Shown piece by piece: positions 2,882 through 36,288 of a stretch of DNA of 37,620 bases; the stretch's first letter is position 1, and every line of letters begins with the position of its first letter. The DNA is taken from the IMG/VR virus record IMGVR_UViG_3300025000_000248; one strand, given 5' to 3'. Source of the DNA: a virus. The notes beneath the pieces were generated by a model. The model worked only from the letters and a program-made list of their open reading frames with translations, was not told the origin of the DNA and searched no databases. The position numbers were made by a program, and so were the translations under genes.

Positions 2882-2968
2882 CCCCTCCCCCAGGGGGTTC
2901 AAAAATATCAAGGGGGTATTGAAATAGGAGTGCCCACAGGGGCTAAGATAATATACCCCCTGGGGGTA
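2882..2968. promoter_or_regulatory. Cluster of GGGGGTAT / ATACCCCC octamers in both orientations, including the palindrome ATACCCCC-T-GGGGGTAT (2951-2967)
   Basis: Seen in sequence. Lies between the 3' end of the Cys-rich operon and the next gene start. Confidence 0.5.
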
Positions 2969-2976
2969 TCAATTCA

Positions 2977-3417
2977 TTATTCTAGGTAAGCACTTGACTC
3001 CCCTACAAGTATCTTCCTAGCAATGTAACCAAGCTTATTGAGTTGGTCTGCATAATAGTTAGCACCTGTATTGAAGCATAAATCTTCTGGTAATTTTGTC
3101 CCTAGCACCTTGTTAGCAATATCTTCAGGGGCATTAGTGATGAGGTAAGCACCTGAACCATGTAGGTACAACCTGCAAGCATCCAAATATCTCTGGGCTA
3201 ATAAGTCATTTTCAGATACTTCTGAGACAGGGTTTATAATAGGGGTGTCCTCCATTGTGATAGCTAATATGGGGTGCTTAGGACACCCATATAAGGGGCA
3301 GGTGTCCATTTTAGTTATAGTACACCCATCAGGCTTAGCATGCTCACACCCATCCACACACTCACACCAACCCGTCTTAGAGAAACATACTTTTCTGTCA
3401 ACATCATTGCACAACAT
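2977..3417 (-). CDS. Cys-rich CPLYGCPKH-family protein (member A) with about 90-aa C-terminal extension
   Basis: N-terminal C-x-DV-x-x-x-C...CxCxxC...TCPLYGCPKH block, shared with 8 paralogs. Confidence 0.65.
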   Translation of the reverse strand: MLCNDVDRKVCFSKTGWCECVDGCEHAKPDGCTITKMDTCPLYGCPKHPILAITMEDTPIINPVSEVSENDLLAQRYLDACRLYLHGSGAYLITNAPEDIANKVLGTKLPEDLCFNTGANYYADQLNKLGYIARKILVGESSAYLE

Positions 3418-3420
3418 ATA

Positions 3421-3795
3421 TTAATACTCCTCTCCTAATTCATGCGCCATTGGGGCATCATAACCATCCTCTTCTAGTATGCTAGACAATTTAGTGACAA
3501 CATACCCCCGGCTGATGAGATATGGAACAGTATCCTCTGGATCTACTTCATTACCCTCCTCATCTTCAGTAGGACGCTCATCCAGTACGTGTTCTAATTC
3601 AACAGGATCATCGGTGCCTTGCACTACATATGCTTGGCGTACAGCCCCTTCGGCATCATACCACAGATAAGCAGTCATCTTAGAGAAGTCCAGAGTGCTT
3701 ACCGCACCACAATTGATGCATAAAGACTTGTTAATTTCATCCCACATACCAGTTTCTAGACACTTAGGGCATTTAGCTTTAGCTAACACATTCAC
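3421..3795 (-). CDS. Zn-ribbon (CPKC...CINC) plus acidic X domain protein
   Basis: GTG start with AGAGGAGG ribosome-binding site. C-terminal half resembles the small ORFs that partner the Cys-rich genes. Confidence 0.55.
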   Translation of the reverse strand: MNVLAKAKCPKCLETGMWDEINKSLCINCGAVSTLDFSKMTAYLWYDAEGAVRQAYVVQGTDDPVELEHVLDERPTEDEEGNEVDPEDTVPYLISRGYVVTKLSSILEEDGYDAPMAHELGEEY

Positions 3796-3837
3796 TACAC
3801 ATACCTCCTCTTAGCCCAGACCTTCGGGGCATGATTA

Positions 3838-3866
3838 ATTATATCATGAAATGGGGGAGAAGTCAA
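3838..3866 (-). promoter_or_regulatory. Sigma-A-type promoter P1: cTTACTTGACTt-N17-TATAAT
   Basis: Conserved 12-mer around -35 and a consensus -10. Confidence 0.7.
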
Positions 3867-3881
3867 GTAACCCCACGTGCT

Positions 3882-3910
3882 AGAGGAGTACACGCAATGT
3901 GTACTCCTCT
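3882..3910. promoter_or_regulatory. Perfect palindrome AGAGGAGTACAC-GCAAT-GTGTACTCCTCT
   Basis: 12-bp stem immediately upstream of P1. Confidence 0.6.
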
Positions 3911-3943
3911 TTGTAGCAAATAGATTTAATGTAGCATCTTCAA

Positions 3944-4096
3944 TTACTTGCCCTCTGCATAGAACTTAAACCATACTTCATATTCCTCTAGGTTTAGTTC
4001 TACACACATACCATCACTCAGTATGTCATCTTCATAACCCTCAGTAGTAAACACACACCCTGATTCAGGGTGATGCCAGTACACCTTAGCTGTCAC
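3944..4096 (-). CDS. Unlisted small ORF (50 aa, GTG start, GGAGGA ribosome-binding site), X-domain-like
   Basis: Translated by eye as VTAKVYWHHPESGCVFTTEGYEDD... Sits between member B and P1. Confidence 0.3.
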   Translation of the reverse strand: MTAKVYWHHPESGCVFTTEGYEDDILSDGMCVELNLEEYEVWFKFYAEGK

Positions 4097-4125
4097 AATT
4101 TATAGTCCTCCATTCTGTTACAATC

Positions 4126-4308
4126 TTATTTCACTACAGCTTTATGCCTAGGACATCCATATAAGGGGCAGGTATGCTTCTGGGTAAGCATACATATCTT
4201 GGATACATGTGAATACTGATCACACACGTCACACTTACATATATTGCTGTTACCTAATTCACCATTAAAGCATACACTAATGTTCACTTCATCACACGTT
4301 TTATCCAC
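4126..4308 (-). CDS. Cys-rich CPLYGCPKH-family protein (member B)
   Basis: ...TCPLYGCPRHKAVVK. Confidence 0.6.
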   Translation of the reverse strand: MDKTCDEVNISVCFNGELGNSNICKCDVCDQYSHVSKICMLTQKHTCPLYGCPRHKAVVK

Positions 4309-4313
4309 ATTAT

Positions 4314-4496
4314 CTACCTCCTAGTTAAGGTCTCCTCATCTGCTAAGGTACAACGCTCTACCCATATGCCGTCTTTACTCGCCATACTCTTAGCCTCTTC
4401 ATGGTCTACTGCTTCATATTCTTCTACTGTGTTATAGAACTTATCAGCATCCATGCCATATCCCTGTCTGCATCCGGCTACTACATACTTTGGCAT
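4314..4496 (-). CDS. Small acidic protein (X1)
   Basis: 60 aa, immediately upstream of member B. Confidence 0.45.
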   Translation of the reverse strand: MPKYVVAGCRQGYGMDADKFYNTVEEYEAVDHEEAKSMASKDGIWVERCTLADEETLTRR

Positions 4497-4508
4497 TTCT
4501 TATCCCTC

Positions 4509-4862
4509 CTATATCATCTTATGATGTTTTAACCTTTCTGGATAGTTAGACATGATATAATCAAATACCTCTTGTTCTGACTCAGTGTTAATTCCTTTAA
4601 CCTTTAGCTCAGAAATAGCTATATGAAATCCTGTGCCATCTTCCCCACGTACAAAGAATGTGCCATAATTTCCACGTATATTGACCTCCACAGTGAAGTT
4701 AGCAATAGGTATACTGTTAGCATTCTCTAGTTCAGCACGTATTTGCATTAGGGCTTCTGCCCAGGACTGTTTACCTGTTTGGGCATCAATTATGGCATCC
4801 TCAATTACCCTACCAATCTCTAACACTTTATCCTCAATATCAGTTGTTGTGTGATTAGACAT
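4509..4862 (-). CDS. Hypothetical protein (117 aa)
   Basis: ORF with no recognised motif. Confidence 0.5.
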   Translation of the reverse strand: MSNHTTTDIEDKVLEIGRVIEDAIIDAQTGKQSWAEALMQIRAELENANSIPIANFTVEVNIRGNYGTFFVRGEDGTGFHIAISELKVKGINTESEQEVFDYIMSNYPERLKHHKMI

Positions 4863-4879
4863 TGCTTGCTACCTCCTTC

Positions 4880-5110
4880 TTAAGACTTATAATCTGACAT
4901 ACTGTTATAAGCTTTAGGCCAATCCTGTTCTTTTACAGTAGCTTCATGCTTGGGACACCCATATAATGGACAAGTACTAACTCCAGTAGATGGGCAGGGG
5001 TCACTGGCATCCATAGAGTAATTGTGATCAATCCTGGGGCAATCTAAACATGGACACCTATCCAGGTTCTGCTCACATATGTGTATTACTTCAGGACATA
5101 GCTTACTCAT
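4880..5110 (-). CDS. Cys-rich CPLYGCPKH-family protein (member C)
   Basis: MSKLCPEVIHIC...CPCLDC...TCPLYGCPKH. Confidence 0.6.
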   Translation of the reverse strand: MSKLCPEVIHICEQNLDRCPCLDCPRIDHNYSMDASDPCPSTGVSTCPLYGCPKHEATVKEQDWPKAYNSMSDYKS

Positions 5111-5313
5111 CCCATCGACCCCAATTCATAGGCTATTAGCATGCCAAGGGGTAAAGACATCTGCTCAGAAGCCATCTTAATAGCTTCTTCCTCAGTTTCA
5201 GCATGAAACACACCTAGAACTAAGTCTCCCTGCATTTCCCTAACACTACCATCATTTTCATTTGTTACATAAGCTACGGCTATAGCTTCACTCTCCACAC
5301 ATACTAGAAACAT
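5107..5313 (-). CDS. Small acidic protein (X2)
   Basis: 68 aa; its 3' end overlaps the start of member C by 4 bp (ATGA-type overlap). Confidence 0.45.
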   Translation of the reverse strand: MFLVCVESEAIAVAYVTNENDGSVREMQGDLVLGVFHAETEEEAIKMASEQMSLPLGMLIAYELGSMG

Positions 5314-5361
5314 TTCACATACCTCCTTATATATTTGGGCATAGTTTCCGCCCCCATTTTA

Positions 5362-5390
5362 ATTATCTCACACTCCAGAGAAAAAGTCAA
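5362..5390 (-). promoter_or_regulatory. Sigma-A-type promoter P2: CTTACTTGACTT-N17-GATAAT with GTGTGA -16 element
   Basis: Conserved motif. Confidence 0.7.
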
Positions 5391-5596
5391 GTAAGATTAG
5401 GTGATATAAGGTTATCCCATGCCTGCCCAAACTAGGGCTTATCAGTAACCTCACAAAAGCTGTAAGAAAATTTGTAAGAGAATTTCTCGGAGAAGGGTTT
5501 CCCATACCGGACGGAAATTCCCTTACAAAGTTCCTATGAAGTTTGTAAGAAGGTTTGTAAGGCCGGGAATAGGCGTCCACCCCCGCAAACGCGGAG

Positions 5597-5620
5597 AGAG
5601 GATACCATGTGGTATCCTCT
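5597..5620. promoter_or_regulatory. Perfect palindrome AGAGGATACCA-TG-TGGTATCCTCT, preceded by small hairpin CCGC-AAAC-GCGG
   Basis: Lies after the stop of member D. Confidence 0.6.
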
Positions 5621-5666
5621 TTGTCCTGGCTTGCTAGTAGGTGATCTGTAATGGGAATTTACACCC

Positions 5667-5831
5667 TTAACATTTTATACTACCCATTACTATGGGACAT
5701 CCATATATAGAACAGGGAGTCCCATTATGGTAATCATAACATGCTGTCCACCTATCACAATCAATACAATAACATGAGTAGCCCTTATTACTGCACTCAG
5801 CACTAGAGATTTCCCAGCATTGTTTAGGCAT
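5667..5831 (-). CDS. Cys-rich family member D (start refined to MPKQCW...)
   Basis: ...CYCIDC...TPCSIYGCP. The track ORF was extended into the upstream overlapping gene. Confidence 0.5.
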   Translation of the reverse strand: MPKQCWEISSAECSNKGYSCYCIDCDRWTACYDYHNGTPCSIYGCPIVMGSIKC

Positions 5832-5982
5832 AGGGTGCCTGCTTTTCAGTAGCAGCACACTTTTGACATCCATAGGCTGGGCATAATCGACATCCTACAT
5901 CGCATGTAGTACAAGGACACATCTTATCCCCAATTGTGTTGTCACATACTAAATTACTCACATCAAGACACATCTTACTCAT
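5824..5982 (-). CDS. Unlisted Cys-rich family member (I): MSKMCLDVSNLVCDNTIGDKMCPCTTCDVGCRLCPAYGCQKCAATEKQAPYA
   Basis: Found by hand translation. Its ATG overlaps the stop of member E (AATGAGTAA) and there is an AAGAGGAAA ribosome-binding site. Confidence 0.5.
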   Translation of the reverse strand: MSKMCLDVSNLVCDNTIGDKMCPCTTCDVGCRLCPAYGCQKCAATEKQAPYA

Positions 5983-6187
5983 TAGTTTCCTCCTTTAATA
6001 TGGCAGTGTGTTTAGGGCACCCATATAAGGGGCAAGTACCTGAAACTGGGTGAGCACACTCACCTTCTTTAAGCTTGATATACCCATCCTCGCAGTACAC
6101 ACACGGGCAGGTACTGTATCCAGTTGCCTCCTCCCGGCAAATATCTTCACAGACTTCTACATCAACCTTATTACAAGGCTTACTCAT
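5975..6187 (-). CDS. Cys-rich CPLYGCPKH-family protein (member E)
   Basis: MSKPCNKVDVEVC...CPCVYC...TCPLYGCPKH. Confidence 0.6.
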   Translation of the reverse strand: MSKPCNKVDVEVCEDICREEATGYSTCPCVYCEDGYIKLKEGECAHPVSGTCPLYGCPKHTAILKEETNE

Positions 6188-6365
6188 TGGTACCACCAGC
6201 TAAGCTTGTCAGATTTGATAGCACTGCACCATACTTTTGACATCCATACAAGGGACAACAAATGCAATCTCCTGATAGGAAAAAATCACAATCTCCACAC
6301 TCACAATAATCATGTCCTTCACACTCACAGACTTCCACATCCACATCCCCACAAAATCTACTCAT
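6180..6365 (-). CDS. Cys-rich family member F
   Basis: MSRFCGDVDVEVCEC...CCPLYGCQKY. Confidence 0.6.
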   Translation of the reverse strand: MSRFCGDVDVEVCECEGHDYCECGDCDFFLSGDCICCPLYGCQKYGAVLSNLTSLAGGTNE

Positions 6366-6525
6366 CATCTTCAACTCCTATCTTTTTACCATCTGCATAG
6401 GTTGCTTTGTGCTCTGCACACCCATATAGGGAGCATTGCTCGCATTGTGGTATTACTGGGCACCCTCTGCACGGACATATCTGATTGGCGCATTCTCGCA
6501 GTACCTCTCTACACAGCTTACTCAT
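6358..6525 (-). CDS. Cys-rich family member G
   Basis: MSKLCREVLREC...CPCRGC...CSLYGCAEH with a GTGAGGAAG ribosome-binding site. Confidence 0.6.
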   Translation of the reverse strand: MSKLCREVLRECANQICPCRGCPVIPQCEQCSLYGCAEHKATYADGKKIGVEDDE

Positions 6526-7006
6526 CTTCCTCACCCCCACTATCTAGACATTTATATGCCATGGCATTGTCGTCTCCGTCTTTTATCACCACCCCTGATA
6601 TTGGAATTACAGTATGCCCTAAGTTAACTAGGTGCTTGATGTGCGCCTTTGCATCCTTACAGTGGCACGTATTGCAGGCATTGCCTTCGCAGTTTAAGCA
6701 CACATCCCTATCATGCTCCTCCAGGATATTCTCAAGGTGCATGGGGTCATTCAGGCCATACACCAAATACGCTGAGCTGGGTGCTGTAGTAGAGTTATCA
6801 CCCCCGTACACAAGGTAGAGGACTGGGGCAGTAGGTTCAGGCTCAGCAGTTGGCAATGGGTGCTTAGGGCATCCAAATATGGGGCAGGTGTTCAGTTTGG
6901 TAATTGCACACACACCTTGATAATTAGACTTATTTTCACACATGTTGCAGTGACATGGGTACCCCTTAGCAGTACACATCTCAATAGATACATCTTTACA
7001 TTCCAT
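6518..7006 (-). CDS. Cys-rich family member H with fused C-terminal X-like domain and second Cys cluster
   Basis: MECKDVSIEMC...CHCNMC...TCPIFGCPKH, then ...AYLVYGLNDPMHLENILEEHD... Confidence 0.6.
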   Translation of the reverse strand: MECKDVSIEMCTAKGYPCHCNMCENKSNYQGVCAITKLNTCPIFGCPKHPLPTAEPEPTAPVLYLVYGGDNSTTAPSSAYLVYGLNDPMHLENILEEHDRDVCLNCEGNACNTCHCKDAKAHIKHLVNLGHTVIPISGVVIKDGDDNAMAYKCLDSGGEEDE

Positions 7007-7175
7007 ACATACACCCCCTTATTTTCCTAAATAAACCTCAAGTGCTGAGAGGAGCCCCATGCTCCCCTCTTTCACTAGTACTTCTTGGATGAGGGAATTT
7101 AAGTACTCTCTATCCTTCTCAGATAACCCCAGCTCTGGTAAATTGAACACAACTGTGATCTTTACTTGCTCCACT

Positions 7176-7526
7176 TTATTCCCCCTTACACATGCGCTCC
7201 ATAATAGTAAGTCTGCTAATAATCATGGTGAGTACACAGGCGCTATCCAACCCATCTATCACGAATCTCTCATGTAACTCCTCGGCGGTAATGTGTTCTC
7301 CCTCTAACCACCCCATTATTTGATCTGCTACCTGGCCAAAGGCAAAACTGGTAGCTGTTGCAGTCTCCCCAGTTTCTAGGTCACTGACCTGCACCATGGA
7401 TTCATCTGTACAGGGCCCTACCTTCAATGTGACATTAAATGGTGTACCGCAACAGACACATATCCACCCCATAATATCAATGTGATGAATCTCAGTGTTG
7501 CTACAATTTGGGCATTTCGTTAACAT
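7176..7526 (-). CDS. Zn-ribbon protein (CPNC...CVCC)
   Basis: ORF of 116 aa. Confidence 0.5.
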   Translation of the reverse strand: MLTKCPNCSNTEIHHIDIMGWICVCCGTPFNVTLKVGPCTDESMVQVSDLETGETATATSFAFGQVADQIMGWLEGEHITAEELHERFVIDGLDSACVLTMIISRLTIMERMCKGE

Positions 7527-7861: not shown

Positions 7862-7890
7862 ATTATATCACAAAACAGAGGAGAAGTCAA
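7862..7890 (-). promoter_or_regulatory. Sigma-A-type promoter P3: CTTACTTGACTT-N17-TATAAT (TTGTGA -16 element)
   Basis: Conserved motif. Confidence 0.7.
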
Positions 7891-12090: not shown

Positions 12091-12119
12091 ATTTTACCAT
12101 GGGCTGGGGGAAAAGTCAA
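12091..12119 (-). promoter_or_regulatory. Sigma-A-type promoter P5: CTTACTTGACTT-N17-TAAAAT
   Basis: Conserved motif. Confidence 0.65.
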
Positions 12120-14046: not shown

Positions 14047-14102
14047 ATTGTTGCATGAAACCAAGAAAAAGTCAAGTACCTCTAAGGCTTTCCTTAGAGG
14101 TA
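14047..14102 (-). promoter_or_regulatory. Promoter P6 (TACTTGACTT-N17-AACAAT) whose -35 overlaps the palindrome TACCTCTAAGG-CTTTC-CCTTAGAGGTA (14077-14102)
   Basis: Conserved motif with an overlapping 11-bp palindrome. Confidence 0.55.
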
Positions 14103-15836: not shown

Positions 15837-15865
15837 ATTTTCTCACAAAACGAGGGAGAAGTCAA
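15837..15865 (-). promoter_or_regulatory. Sigma-A-type promoter P7: CTACTTGACTT-N17-GAAAAT (TTGTGA -16 element)
   Basis: Conserved motif. Confidence 0.65.
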
Positions 15866-27832: not shown

Positions 27833-28726
27833 TCACTTCGCTGCAGGTAGTGGTAAACTTATCATATTGTTTCCGCCAGAAACCATAGACAATTTACCAT
27901 CCCAGTGTAATGCAAGCTGGTACTGAATCAGCTCTGGAGTTATAGATGCTTGTAGCAATTTATTAGAATTAGCTTCTCCAGTAGCTTTTATAACAGAAGC
28001 ATCTGCTATACCTTGGGCATCCACTCTAGCCTTGTTAGCGGTAACTGTGGATTGTGTTAATTCAATCTCCATTTGTTGGAGCTTTTGTTGAGCATCCACC
28101 TTAGCTTGAATAGCTTTCATGGTATCTTCGTCCGGCCTAATTTCTCCAAATGAAAATGTTTCAACCTCTAGGCCAAAGGGTGTCAAGTCTTTGATCAGTA
28201 TTGCATGTATTTTTTCTTGGATTTCTGTACGCTTGTTTCCGTAAAGGTCAAGAACACTGTAGCTAGATGTTACGGCCTGGGATGCAGTCTTTACTTGCTG
28301 CTTGAGGTATCCCGACTGTATGCTCTCAATGTCTGCACCTTTAAAACGATTAAATATTTCCGGTAATTTGTCCACATTAGCGTGGTAAGTAAAATATGCG
28401 TCAACTGATACCGGCTTACCCTCCATTGTGGAGGTATTATAGGAATCATCATTGGGAGAACCTTCTGTCTTAGCCTTAGTTAGCCATACAGTTTCGGTTG
28501 AAACTGGGTATTCCCTAACACTCTTCCAAGGGGCTACTGGGTGCACCCCTTGACCTAACGTGACATCTTCCAGCCCCCCACTCATGTTGTAAATGACCCC
28601 AGCATGCCCTGGATTAACCTTTGTTGTGCAAATTACCCCCAGAATTAGAAGTATTAGCATCCCCACTACTGTTAGAATCGCTCCCTTTGAAAACTTTGGT
28701 AACCCCAGATCTAGATTTCTCCTCAT
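27833..28726 (-). CDS. SPFH/band-7 (prohibitin/HflK/C/stomatin-like) membrane protein
   Basis: N-terminal TM, then VNPGHAGVIY...FGLEV...TMKAIQAKVDAQQ...ANKARVDAQG pattern. AAGGGAGGAAA ribosome-binding site. Confidence 0.8.
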   Translation of the reverse strand: MRRNLDLGLPKFSKGAILTVVGMLILLILGVICTTKVNPGHAGVIYNMSGGLEDVTLGQGVHPVAPWKSVREYPVSTETVWLTKAKTEGSPNDDSYNTSTMEGKPVSVDAYFTYHANVDKLPEIFNRFKGADIESIQSGYLKQQVKTASQAVTSSYSVLDLYGNKRTEIQEKIHAILIKDLTPFGLEVETFSFGEIRPDEDTMKAIQAKVDAQQKLQQMEIELTQSTVTANKARVDAQGIADASVIKATGEANSNKLLQASITPELIQYQLALHWDGKLSMVSGGNNMISLPLPAAK

Positions 28727-35493: not shown

Positions 35494-36288
35494 CTATCTA
35501 TCCTTAAATCCCAACAATCTCTTGTACTCTACAATTATATCAGATGCTAATCCCTTAGTTAAATTCTCTAAGGGAACACTAGAATATGGGATCTCTGTCA
35601 GCCCCAGAGGTATTATTTTCTGCAATAAAGAAGATATATATTTTATTTGACCTTCCGTTGCTTTCCCATCTTTCCAATCAGCCTCCTCCTTATCAGGTGC
35701 TTCCCTTCTGTACACATCAACTTCTATGTCTCTTCGGGAAGCTAAGAAATCACACAGATGTACGAACTTTTGCATTTCTGTGGAAGGTCTAGGCAGTATC
35801 ACTACCCCTTCCCTATCTGTATCCCATTGTCCCATATGAGTCTCAATACAATCACAAATGCTATTCCACGCGCATTCTAGTTCTTCAGGCTCAAATACAT
35901 TAAATAGTGATCTAACCAACATAGGATGATCTGAAGCTGTGTGACCAGAATCAGTCATCCCCTGTTTAAAGGAGTCATGTAATACTATTGCTATTCTTAT
36001 TATGTCTTTCTCAGCATCTGTAAAGGGAGCGTAAGTAGAGTTGGTGAACAGATTTTCAGCCACTAAAAATACCGCCTTAGTATGCCTAACTAATCCACCT
36101 ATACCTAAGGAAGTTCTAGGGTGGTACTTGCTTGATGTACTTGCAGGTACAGTCCAAAAGTAATCTGGTATTTTATATAAGGCCATGGCACACAATGTGC
36201 GCCACTCTTCATTTACTATTTTATCTAGTTCCCAACCAAATATACTAATGGGGTCTATACTCATAGACGCCAATTTCATAAAAGCCAC
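35494..36288 (-). CDS. HD-domain metal-dependent phosphohydrolase
   Basis: ...SSKYHP...H...LHD... H/HD signature. Confidence 0.55.
   Translation of the reverse strand: MAFMKLASMSIDPISIFGWELDKIVNEEWRTLCAMALYKIPDYFWTVPASTSSKYHPRTSLGIGGLVRHTKAVFLVAENLFTNSTYAPFTDAEKDIIRIAIVLHDSFKQGMTDSGHTASDHPMLVRSLFNVFEPEELECAWNSICDCIETHMGQWDTDREGVVILPRPSTEMQKFVHLCDFLASRRDIEVDVYRREAPDKEEADWKDGKATEGQIKYISSLLQKIIPLGLTEIPYSSVPLENLTKGLASDIIVEYKRLLGFKDR

Follow-up and report, generated by a model that had tools for sequence, protein, structure and literature searches.

The 37,620-nucleotide (nt) stretch of viral DNA held as IMG/VR virus record IMGVR_UViG_3300025000_000248 (the whole of which we call the window) comes from an uncultured phage of ~140 kb that recurs in groundwater metagenome assemblies, one of its records bearing the label PRJNA268031. 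Almost all genes of the window are carried on the minus strand, and those at 2977-7526 are small and densely packed. Nine of the 14 genes between 2977 and 7006 (members A to H and open reading frame (ORF) 6358-6540) share a Cys-rich domain of ~50 amino acids (aa) that ends in CP[LI][YF]GC[PAQ][KE][HY]. Two proteins of this block, ZnX (ORF 3421-3795, immediately upstream of member A) and H (ORF 6518-7006), end in a small acidic domain, here called X, which is the subject of this report; it follows a zinc-ribbon-like module in ZnX and the Cys-rich domain in H. An original prediction, made by eye from the DNA letters, had placed X in five contexts, namely these two fusions and three standalone small ORFs (3944-4096, 4314-4496 and 5107-5313), and had read the arrangement as a two-component cassette of X and a Cys-rich protein, duplicated several times. 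All five ORFs or segments are present on the minus strand at the positions given there, but only the C-termini of ZnX and H hold X, and the three small ORFs resemble it at chance level.

The evidence for this division comes from alignment statistics. When each pair of segments was aligned by the Smith-Waterman method and compared with 500 composition-preserving shuffles, ZnX aa 37-124 against H aa 56-162 scored 101 (z = 14.5), a value reached by 0/500 shuffles, and BLASTP aligned the two proteins at 30% identity over 89 aa (E = 2e-10). The remaining pairs among the five segments gave z between -1.2 and 1.9, which is chance level, and with four control ORFs included the pairs other than ZnX/H spanned -1.5 to 2.6. 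Against the two X copies, 3944-4096 had z = 0.8 and 1.8, 4314-4496 had 0.3 and 0.0, and 5107-5313 had 1.1 and -0.7. Profile comparison with X by hhalign gave P = 0.2, 0.38 and 0.69 for the three small ORFs in the same order, with control ORFs at 0.1-0.6. We also ran an X-family hidden Markov model (HMM), with all filtering disabled, on all stop-to-stop ORFs of 35 aa or more that the window and four loci contain, and its matches were confined to ZnX, H and their relatives; 3944-4096 gave no match at E < 10, and neither 4314-4496 nor 5107-5313 (for which the sister-phage orthologue was also considered) gave a match. The proposed similarity is thus refuted for the three small ORFs by profile methods and holds for the ZnX/H pair. 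Even for that pair the register drawn by eye was off by one strand: 'YLWYDAEG' of ZnX pairs with 'YLVYGGDN' of H, and in the BLASTP alignment 'AYVVQGTDDP' of ZnX pairs with 'AYLVYGLNDP' of H. We attribute the likeness seen by eye to shared acidity and composition, net charge per 100 aa being -8 to -22 in the five segments and -8 to -16 in the three small ORFs, with a window median of -2.3. By these sequence comparisons there are exactly two copies of X in the window, those of ZnX and H.

Beyond the window X has three further members, which brings the family to five; ZnX and H, as the window's own copies, are both significantly similar to the X profile. The C-terminus of P0002, a 161-aa orthologue of H in a sister phage of 142 kb, is one of the three, and there the fusion of Cys-rich domain and X is kept at 42% full-length identity. 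P0003 is a standalone X of 95 aa on a third contig (L014 1560-1847, from a phage linked to SRR19746069). The last member, also standalone and 104 aa long, belongs to the window phage itself and lies ~600 bp past the left end of the window (L001 14454-14768); it is nearest to P0003, and its presence is backed by metagenome contigs. X is thus found in three architectures: behind a zinc-ribbon-like module, behind a Cys-rich domain, and alone. A profile built from two X sequences, run against 1.84 billion representative proteins, retrieved ZnX (P0001, the top match), P0002 and P0003 with E below 1e-9, together with four repeat proteins that matched over a short 'L..LGY.V' stretch only. A four-sequence profile run against 5.8 billion proteins retrieved only P0001, P0002, P0003 and P0008 (H). 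In 50,697 phage records, tblastn with H and the standalone X gave no match, nor did megablast with the DNA of the region, and scans of IMG/VR and JGI metagenomes found the same phage population and the sister phage only. Pfam, PHROGs, NCBIfam, PDB and BFVD returned nothing informative for X, and the best match of the profile among PDB sequences was a chance one (E 0.97). It is scarcely credible that the ZnX/H similarity is a product of chance or composition and that X is no real domain. The small size of the family is all that speaks for such a view, and it would have to accommodate a z of 14.5 over composition-preserving shuffles, three more members from independent contigs (E 1e-10 to 1e-42) and a confident fold prediction; the shuffles, the database retrieval and the HMM scan together rule out a compositional artefact. 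Judged by sequence, X is a genuine autonomous domain of ~85 residues, confined to a small clade of ~140-kb groundwater phages, and it is a previously unrecorded orphan domain family of a familiar sort, that of small acidic early phage proteins.

The core motif of X is Y-[LV]-[VI]-x-G-[TL]-[DN]-D-P-x-x-L-E ... E-G ... L-x-x-x-G-[YH]-x-V. In the X alignment (A4), two hydrophobic strands lead to G-[TL]-[DN]-D-P-x-x-L-E, which begins the first helix (a1), the E-G pair is invariant in the loop between a1 and a2, L-x-x-x-G-[YH]-x-V lies at the junction of a2 and b3, and the C-terminal tail is acidic. AlphaFold2 (AF2), given a four-sequence alignment, modelled X with a mean predicted local distance difference test score (pLDDT) of 78.7 and a predicted template modelling score of 0.61, in the order b1 (2-7), b2 (13-20), a1 (25-34), a2 (47-56) and b3 (60-63), beyond which the acidic tail is modelled with low confidence. 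X carries -17 to -22 charges per 100 aa with an isoelectric point (pI) of 4.05-4.3, past the 10th percentile among window proteins. Net charge is -16 to -19 (pI 4.05-4.3) in the three copies without a Cys-rich loop insertion, and -11 (pI 4.65) in the H-type copy. In the H-type loop the acidic EDEEG stretch of the other copies is swapped for a cluster of cysteines, C-x2-C-x4-C-x2-C in P0002, with the central 'EG' kept invariant, and this cluster may be a metal knuckle. The positions of these and neighbouring features are collected in Table 1.

Table 1. Features of the small-gene block, in coordinates of the window.
Feature	Position	Strand	Details and basis
X domain of ZnX	3424..3678	-	aa 40-124 of ORF 3421-3795; net -19, pI 4.05
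N-terminal zinc-ribbon-like module of ZnX	3679..3795	-	aa 1-39, CxxC...CxxC; sequence read
X domain of H	6521..6829	-	aa 60-162 of ORF 6518-7006; homology and profile matches
Cys-rich insertion in the X domain of H	6659..6700	-	C103-x2-C106-x4-C111-x2-C114-x-C116, in the a1-a2 loop
Cys-rich 'CP[LI][YF]GCPKH' N-terminal domain of H	6857..7006	-	aa 1-50; BLASTP to A-G2, E 1e-13 to 1e-7
C-terminal alpha/beta domain of member A, possible distant relative of X	3007..3213	-	aa 69-137 of ORF 2977-3417
Acidic 50-aa protein, phrog_7587, not X	3944..4096	-	E = 1.6e-5, aa 7-47 against profile positions 46-87 of 91
60-aa orphan ORF, not X	4314..4496	-	good ribosome-binding site; this phage population only
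68-aa acidic protein, not X	5107..5313	-	first gene behind promoter 5390-5362
Extended -10 promoter TTGACT-N14-TGaTATAAT ahead of ZnX	3838..3866	-	motif count
Perfect 12-bp hairpin, no T-run tail, between ORF 3944-4096 and the ZnX promoter	3882..3910	-	sequence read
Terminator-like hairpin immediately downstream of member A, at the end of the predicted ZnX-A unit	2953..2969	-	sequence read

ZnX begins with a GTG codon behind a GGAGG ribosome-binding site. We considered an internal start at Met40, which would yield a standalone X, and rejected it; no ribosome-binding site precedes that codon, and so we take the fusion of the zinc-ribbon-like module and X to be real. The two knuckles of the module (C9-x2-C12 and C26-x2-C29) are ~13 residues apart, and the N-terminus gave weak matches below the cut-offs to Pfam Zn_ribbon_4, DUF2387 and Zn_Ribbon_TF (E 0.14-0.23) and to NCBIfam TIGR02443 (E 0.079). 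It is also weakly similar to the zinc ribbon of ORF 7176-7526 (hhalign P = 0.022); that ORF was rejected as another ZnX-like protein, its C-terminal part being unrelated to X (P = 0.29). The gene for member A follows ZnX after a 3-nt spacer (TAA TAT ATG) with a GGAGG of its own, and we predict that the two form a compact two-gene operon running from the promoter at 3866-3838 to the hairpin at 2969-2953. That promoter is one of nine extended -10 sites of the form TTGACT-N14-TGnTATAAT in the window, against 0.75 expected, and eight of the nine are on the gene strand (3838-3866, 5362-5390, 7862-7890, 12091-12119, 14047-14075, 15837-15865, 19109-19137 and 35534-35562). Most share the extension TTGACTT[CT]T. 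The promoter family is typical of Firmicutes sigma-A, which suggests the phylum of the host, and we infer by analogy that the small-gene block may be an early or host-takeover region.

The three small ORFs themselves are probably real genes, since each has a good Shine-Dalgarno sequence and is called as a gene on independent assemblies, and on present sequence evidence they are acidic, presumably early proteins unrelated to X. When all candidate proteins were searched against Pfam, PHROGs and NCBIfam, the one significant match was that of 3944-4096 to phrog_7587. By tblastn this ORF is matched in 109 phage records, chiefly of Salmonella and Providencia phages (best E 3e-3), so that this phrog_7587 protein is a widely shared one in an otherwise orphan block; 4314-4496 and 5107-5313 found no match among the same 50,697 phage records. 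Neither 3944-4096 nor 4314-4496 is present in the sister phage. ORF 5107-5313 does have a counterpart there (L011 11937-12191), 86% identical in protein and ~90% in nucleotide sequence, with neighbour genes at 40-50% at the protein level. The ratio of nonsynonymous to synonymous substitution rates is 0.30 over 58 codons; assemblies of the window phage are 98-100% identical at the small ORFs, and the ratio was thus taken from the sister phage and for ORF 5107-5313 only. The stop codon of this ORF overlaps the start of member C (ATGA), and an 11-12 nt indel relative to L011 11937-12191 both alters the C-terminus of the protein and creates the overlap seen in the window.

Elsewhere in the window the genes encode a UvrD helicase, an ATP-dependent DNA ligase, a 5'-3' exonuclease, a gp32-like protein and a sigma-factor-like protein. 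The nearest cultured relative found, by a single query protein (23064-24410), is Exiguobacterium phage vB_EalM-132 at 44% identity, and contigs related to the window phage carry SPO1_gp51-type proteins. The UvrD-type helicase of the sister phage (L011 gene 1, 1083 aa) holds an intein with a LAGLIDADG endonuclease, and the window copy (17093-19060, 655 aa) is without it. At 19440-21968 lies a gene for an 842-aa protein with a Major Vault Protein (MVP) shoulder domain (PF11978, 6e-26) and an MVP repeat, and a few kb away 27833-28726 encodes an SPFH/Band-7 protein, an odd pair for a phage. The window also holds two repeat tracts. The intergenic one, at 94-184 near the left end, consists of AT-rich short tandem repeats (a 9-nt unit four times and a 30-nt unit twice). 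The other, at 2018-2277 inside minus-strand ORF 1971-2264, is a 15-nt tandem repeat of 17.3 copies (95% match) that codes for pentapeptide repeats; other assemblies of the same phage have approximately 9 (L005), 10 (L004) and 12 (L001) units, counted with <=3 mismatches, and this variation may reflect either a true variable-number repeat or assembly collapse.

What X does, and whether it has anything to do with the Cys-rich genes, is a question for which the cassette had offered an answer. The idea of a repeated cassette fails, as three of the five units that it counted as 'X' lack homology to X. Adjacency to a Cys-rich gene is itself uninformative in a block where 9/14 genes are Cys-rich; all five non-Cys genes between 2977 and 7006 adjoin one, including 4509-4862, which was never called X. 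A Cys-rich gene in the sister phage (L011 12935) has a basic rather than an acidic gene upstream of it. A link to Cys-rich proteins is defensible, in a weaker form, only for the two true X copies, through the H fusion and the predicted ZnX-A unit. From these one might suppose that X is a partner of the Cys-rich proteins, such as a chaperone, antidote or regulatory subunit, and that the H fusion and co-translation of ZnX and A reflect a complex. A fusion of the Rosetta-stone type kept in two phages and a promoter-to-hairpin unit with a 3-nt spacer both agree with this, but we consider it unlikely: there are 2-3 X copies to at least nine Cys-rich genes, the standalone copies at L001 14454-14768 and L014 1560-1847 have no Cys-rich neighbour gene, the A orthologue of the sister phage has no ZnX upstream, the pairing of X with a Cys-rich gene does not recur as a conserved two-gene operon (the ZnX-A unit occurs in the window phage only), and searches of Pfam, PHROG and NCBIfam with ZnX, A, H, B and C brought up no significant toxin or antitoxin family, the PADLOC library not having been searched. 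On L014, moreover, two proteins without Cys, P0009 and P0010, come next after X; P0010, two genes downstream, is a standalone 75-aa protein with 39% identity to the C-terminal domain of A (E = 3e-14). X here precedes Cys-free proteins of the A C-terminal type, and the conserved neighbour of X would therefore be the C-terminal domain of A and not the Cys-rich head. It is also conceivable, although we are doubtful, that X and the A C-terminal domain (with P0009 and P0010) belong to a single superfamily born of tandem duplication, in which case the recurring unit would be a Cys-rich head followed by an X-like acidic domain. In the AF2 model of full-length A, aa 82-137 (pLDDT 80-90) follow the order b1, b2, a1, a2, b3 seen in X, with an extra helix before them (the Cys-rich part, at pLDDT ~45 from a 13-sequence alignment, is unmodelled), and a T-[DN]-[DA]-P turn that precedes a1 and the L-x-x-L-G-Y-[IV] motif of the a2/b3 junction are co-linear with their X equivalents; together with the tandem arrangement of X, P0009 and P0010 on L014, this is suggestive of common descent. 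But hhalign gives the two domains a P of only 0.06-0.12, despite more sequences and AF2-derived secondary structure, and their HMMs fail to cross-detect (E = 4.1, noise level).

The reading we favour, to which we would give roughly one chance in three, is that X is an acidic protein-binding effector module, DNA-mimic-like in character, that works alone or tethered to a Cys-based head. The acidic face of X, made up of the conserved DDPxxLE helix cap, the a1-a2 loop and the C-terminal tail, would dock onto a basic surface on some host protein, probably one that binds nucleic acids, much as DNA-mimic early proteins do, and where X is tied to a Cys-based, probably metal-binding head, the head would give a second contact. 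Homology, architectures, predicted fold, charge and operon layout are the data beneath this proposal; early expression, metal binding, the target and the mode of action are all read from them. Several points weigh against it. Acidity is weak evidence for function, being common among the small proteins of the block, and charge in the loop is not essential, because the H-type copy has C-x2-C-x4-C-x2-C-x-C in its place. With only five distinct members, inference from conservation is thin; early timing would follow from the promoter consensus alone, and the effector role is a low-confidence proposal drawn from sequence, model and analogy. One could instead picture X as a scaffold or self-association domain through which any head joined to it would be multimerised, with the standalone copies serving as competitors or caps. 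The occurrence of X behind two unrelated N-terminal heads as well as alone would suit such a role, as would the exposed edge strand of its small three-stranded sheet in the AF2 model, but homo-oligomers are disfavored, unless counter-charges are present, by a net charge of about -19 over 85 residues, and X has neither a coiled coil nor a known oligomerisation fold, so that this too seems improbable to us. A bolder conjecture, for which we hold out still less hope, supposes a combinatorial system of early proteins that reshuffles fast, with the Cys-rich heads as interchangeable, hypervariable targeting modules for a few acidic effector domains (X and the C-terminal domain of A), which would amount to a diversified repertoire of binders against host factors or defences. 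Points in its favour are the H fusion, the ZnX-A operon, the L014 tandem of X, P0009 and P0010, and a head swap in P0013, a 141-aa variant of member A (2977-3417) from an ENA contig. The C-terminal ~90 residues of P0013 are identical to those of A apart from one substitution and the absence of A's last five residues, and its Cys-rich N-terminal domain is only ~50% identical to A's, which suggests recombination or hypervariation restricted to the Cys-rich head. Should X, as in the effector reading, act on a host DNA-binding protein, it would be a new fold among phage DNA-mimic-like inhibitors, and the joining of Cys-rich heads to it could reveal by what means inhibitors of this sort become specific. 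The present work defines a new domain and disentangles homology from the common acidity with which the grouping by eye had confounded it; uncultured phages hold a great many other orphan domains in their early genes, and with five members the practical value of X is limited.

Fusion of two domains in one protein implies a functional linkage of their free homologues, according to the Rosetta-stone principle. X and the Cys-rich domain fit the principle in being fused in H and its orthologue and also separate in the same genome; they differ from the standard case in that there is one fusion family only, and neutral shuffling is possible in paralogue-rich, recombining early regions, as exemplified by P0013. 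The best structural neighbour of X is PDB 3o2i_A, a 93-aa uncharacterised protein of Leptospirillum. Ferredoxin-like HMA and ACT domains run b-a-b-b-a-b, unlike the b-b-a-a-b of X, which also has no GMxCxxC metal site and no Pfam match to HMA or ACT. No relationship of sequence or fold to a characterised DNA mimic was detected for X, and its closest comparison is with the early proteins of phage SPO1. SPO1 Gp46, an acidic protein of pI 4.3 (PDB 7by7), inhibits HU via its negatively charged surface (PMC8892312), and Gp44 is a host-takeover protein that inhibits RNA polymerase (PMC8208478). X and Gp46 are alike in being small and very acidic (pI 4.05-4.3 for X), and X has the acidity expected of Gp46-type DNA mimics, strong negative charge on a small and predictedly globular protein. 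Like the SPO1 early proteins, it belongs to a family restricted to phages. The likeness extends to the surroundings, as both the SPO1 module and the X block are dense one-strand arrays of small genes with repeated strong sigma-A promoters in a large Firmicutes-type phage, and it is on account of this layout that the block may be regarded as a functional analogue of an early or host-takeover module.

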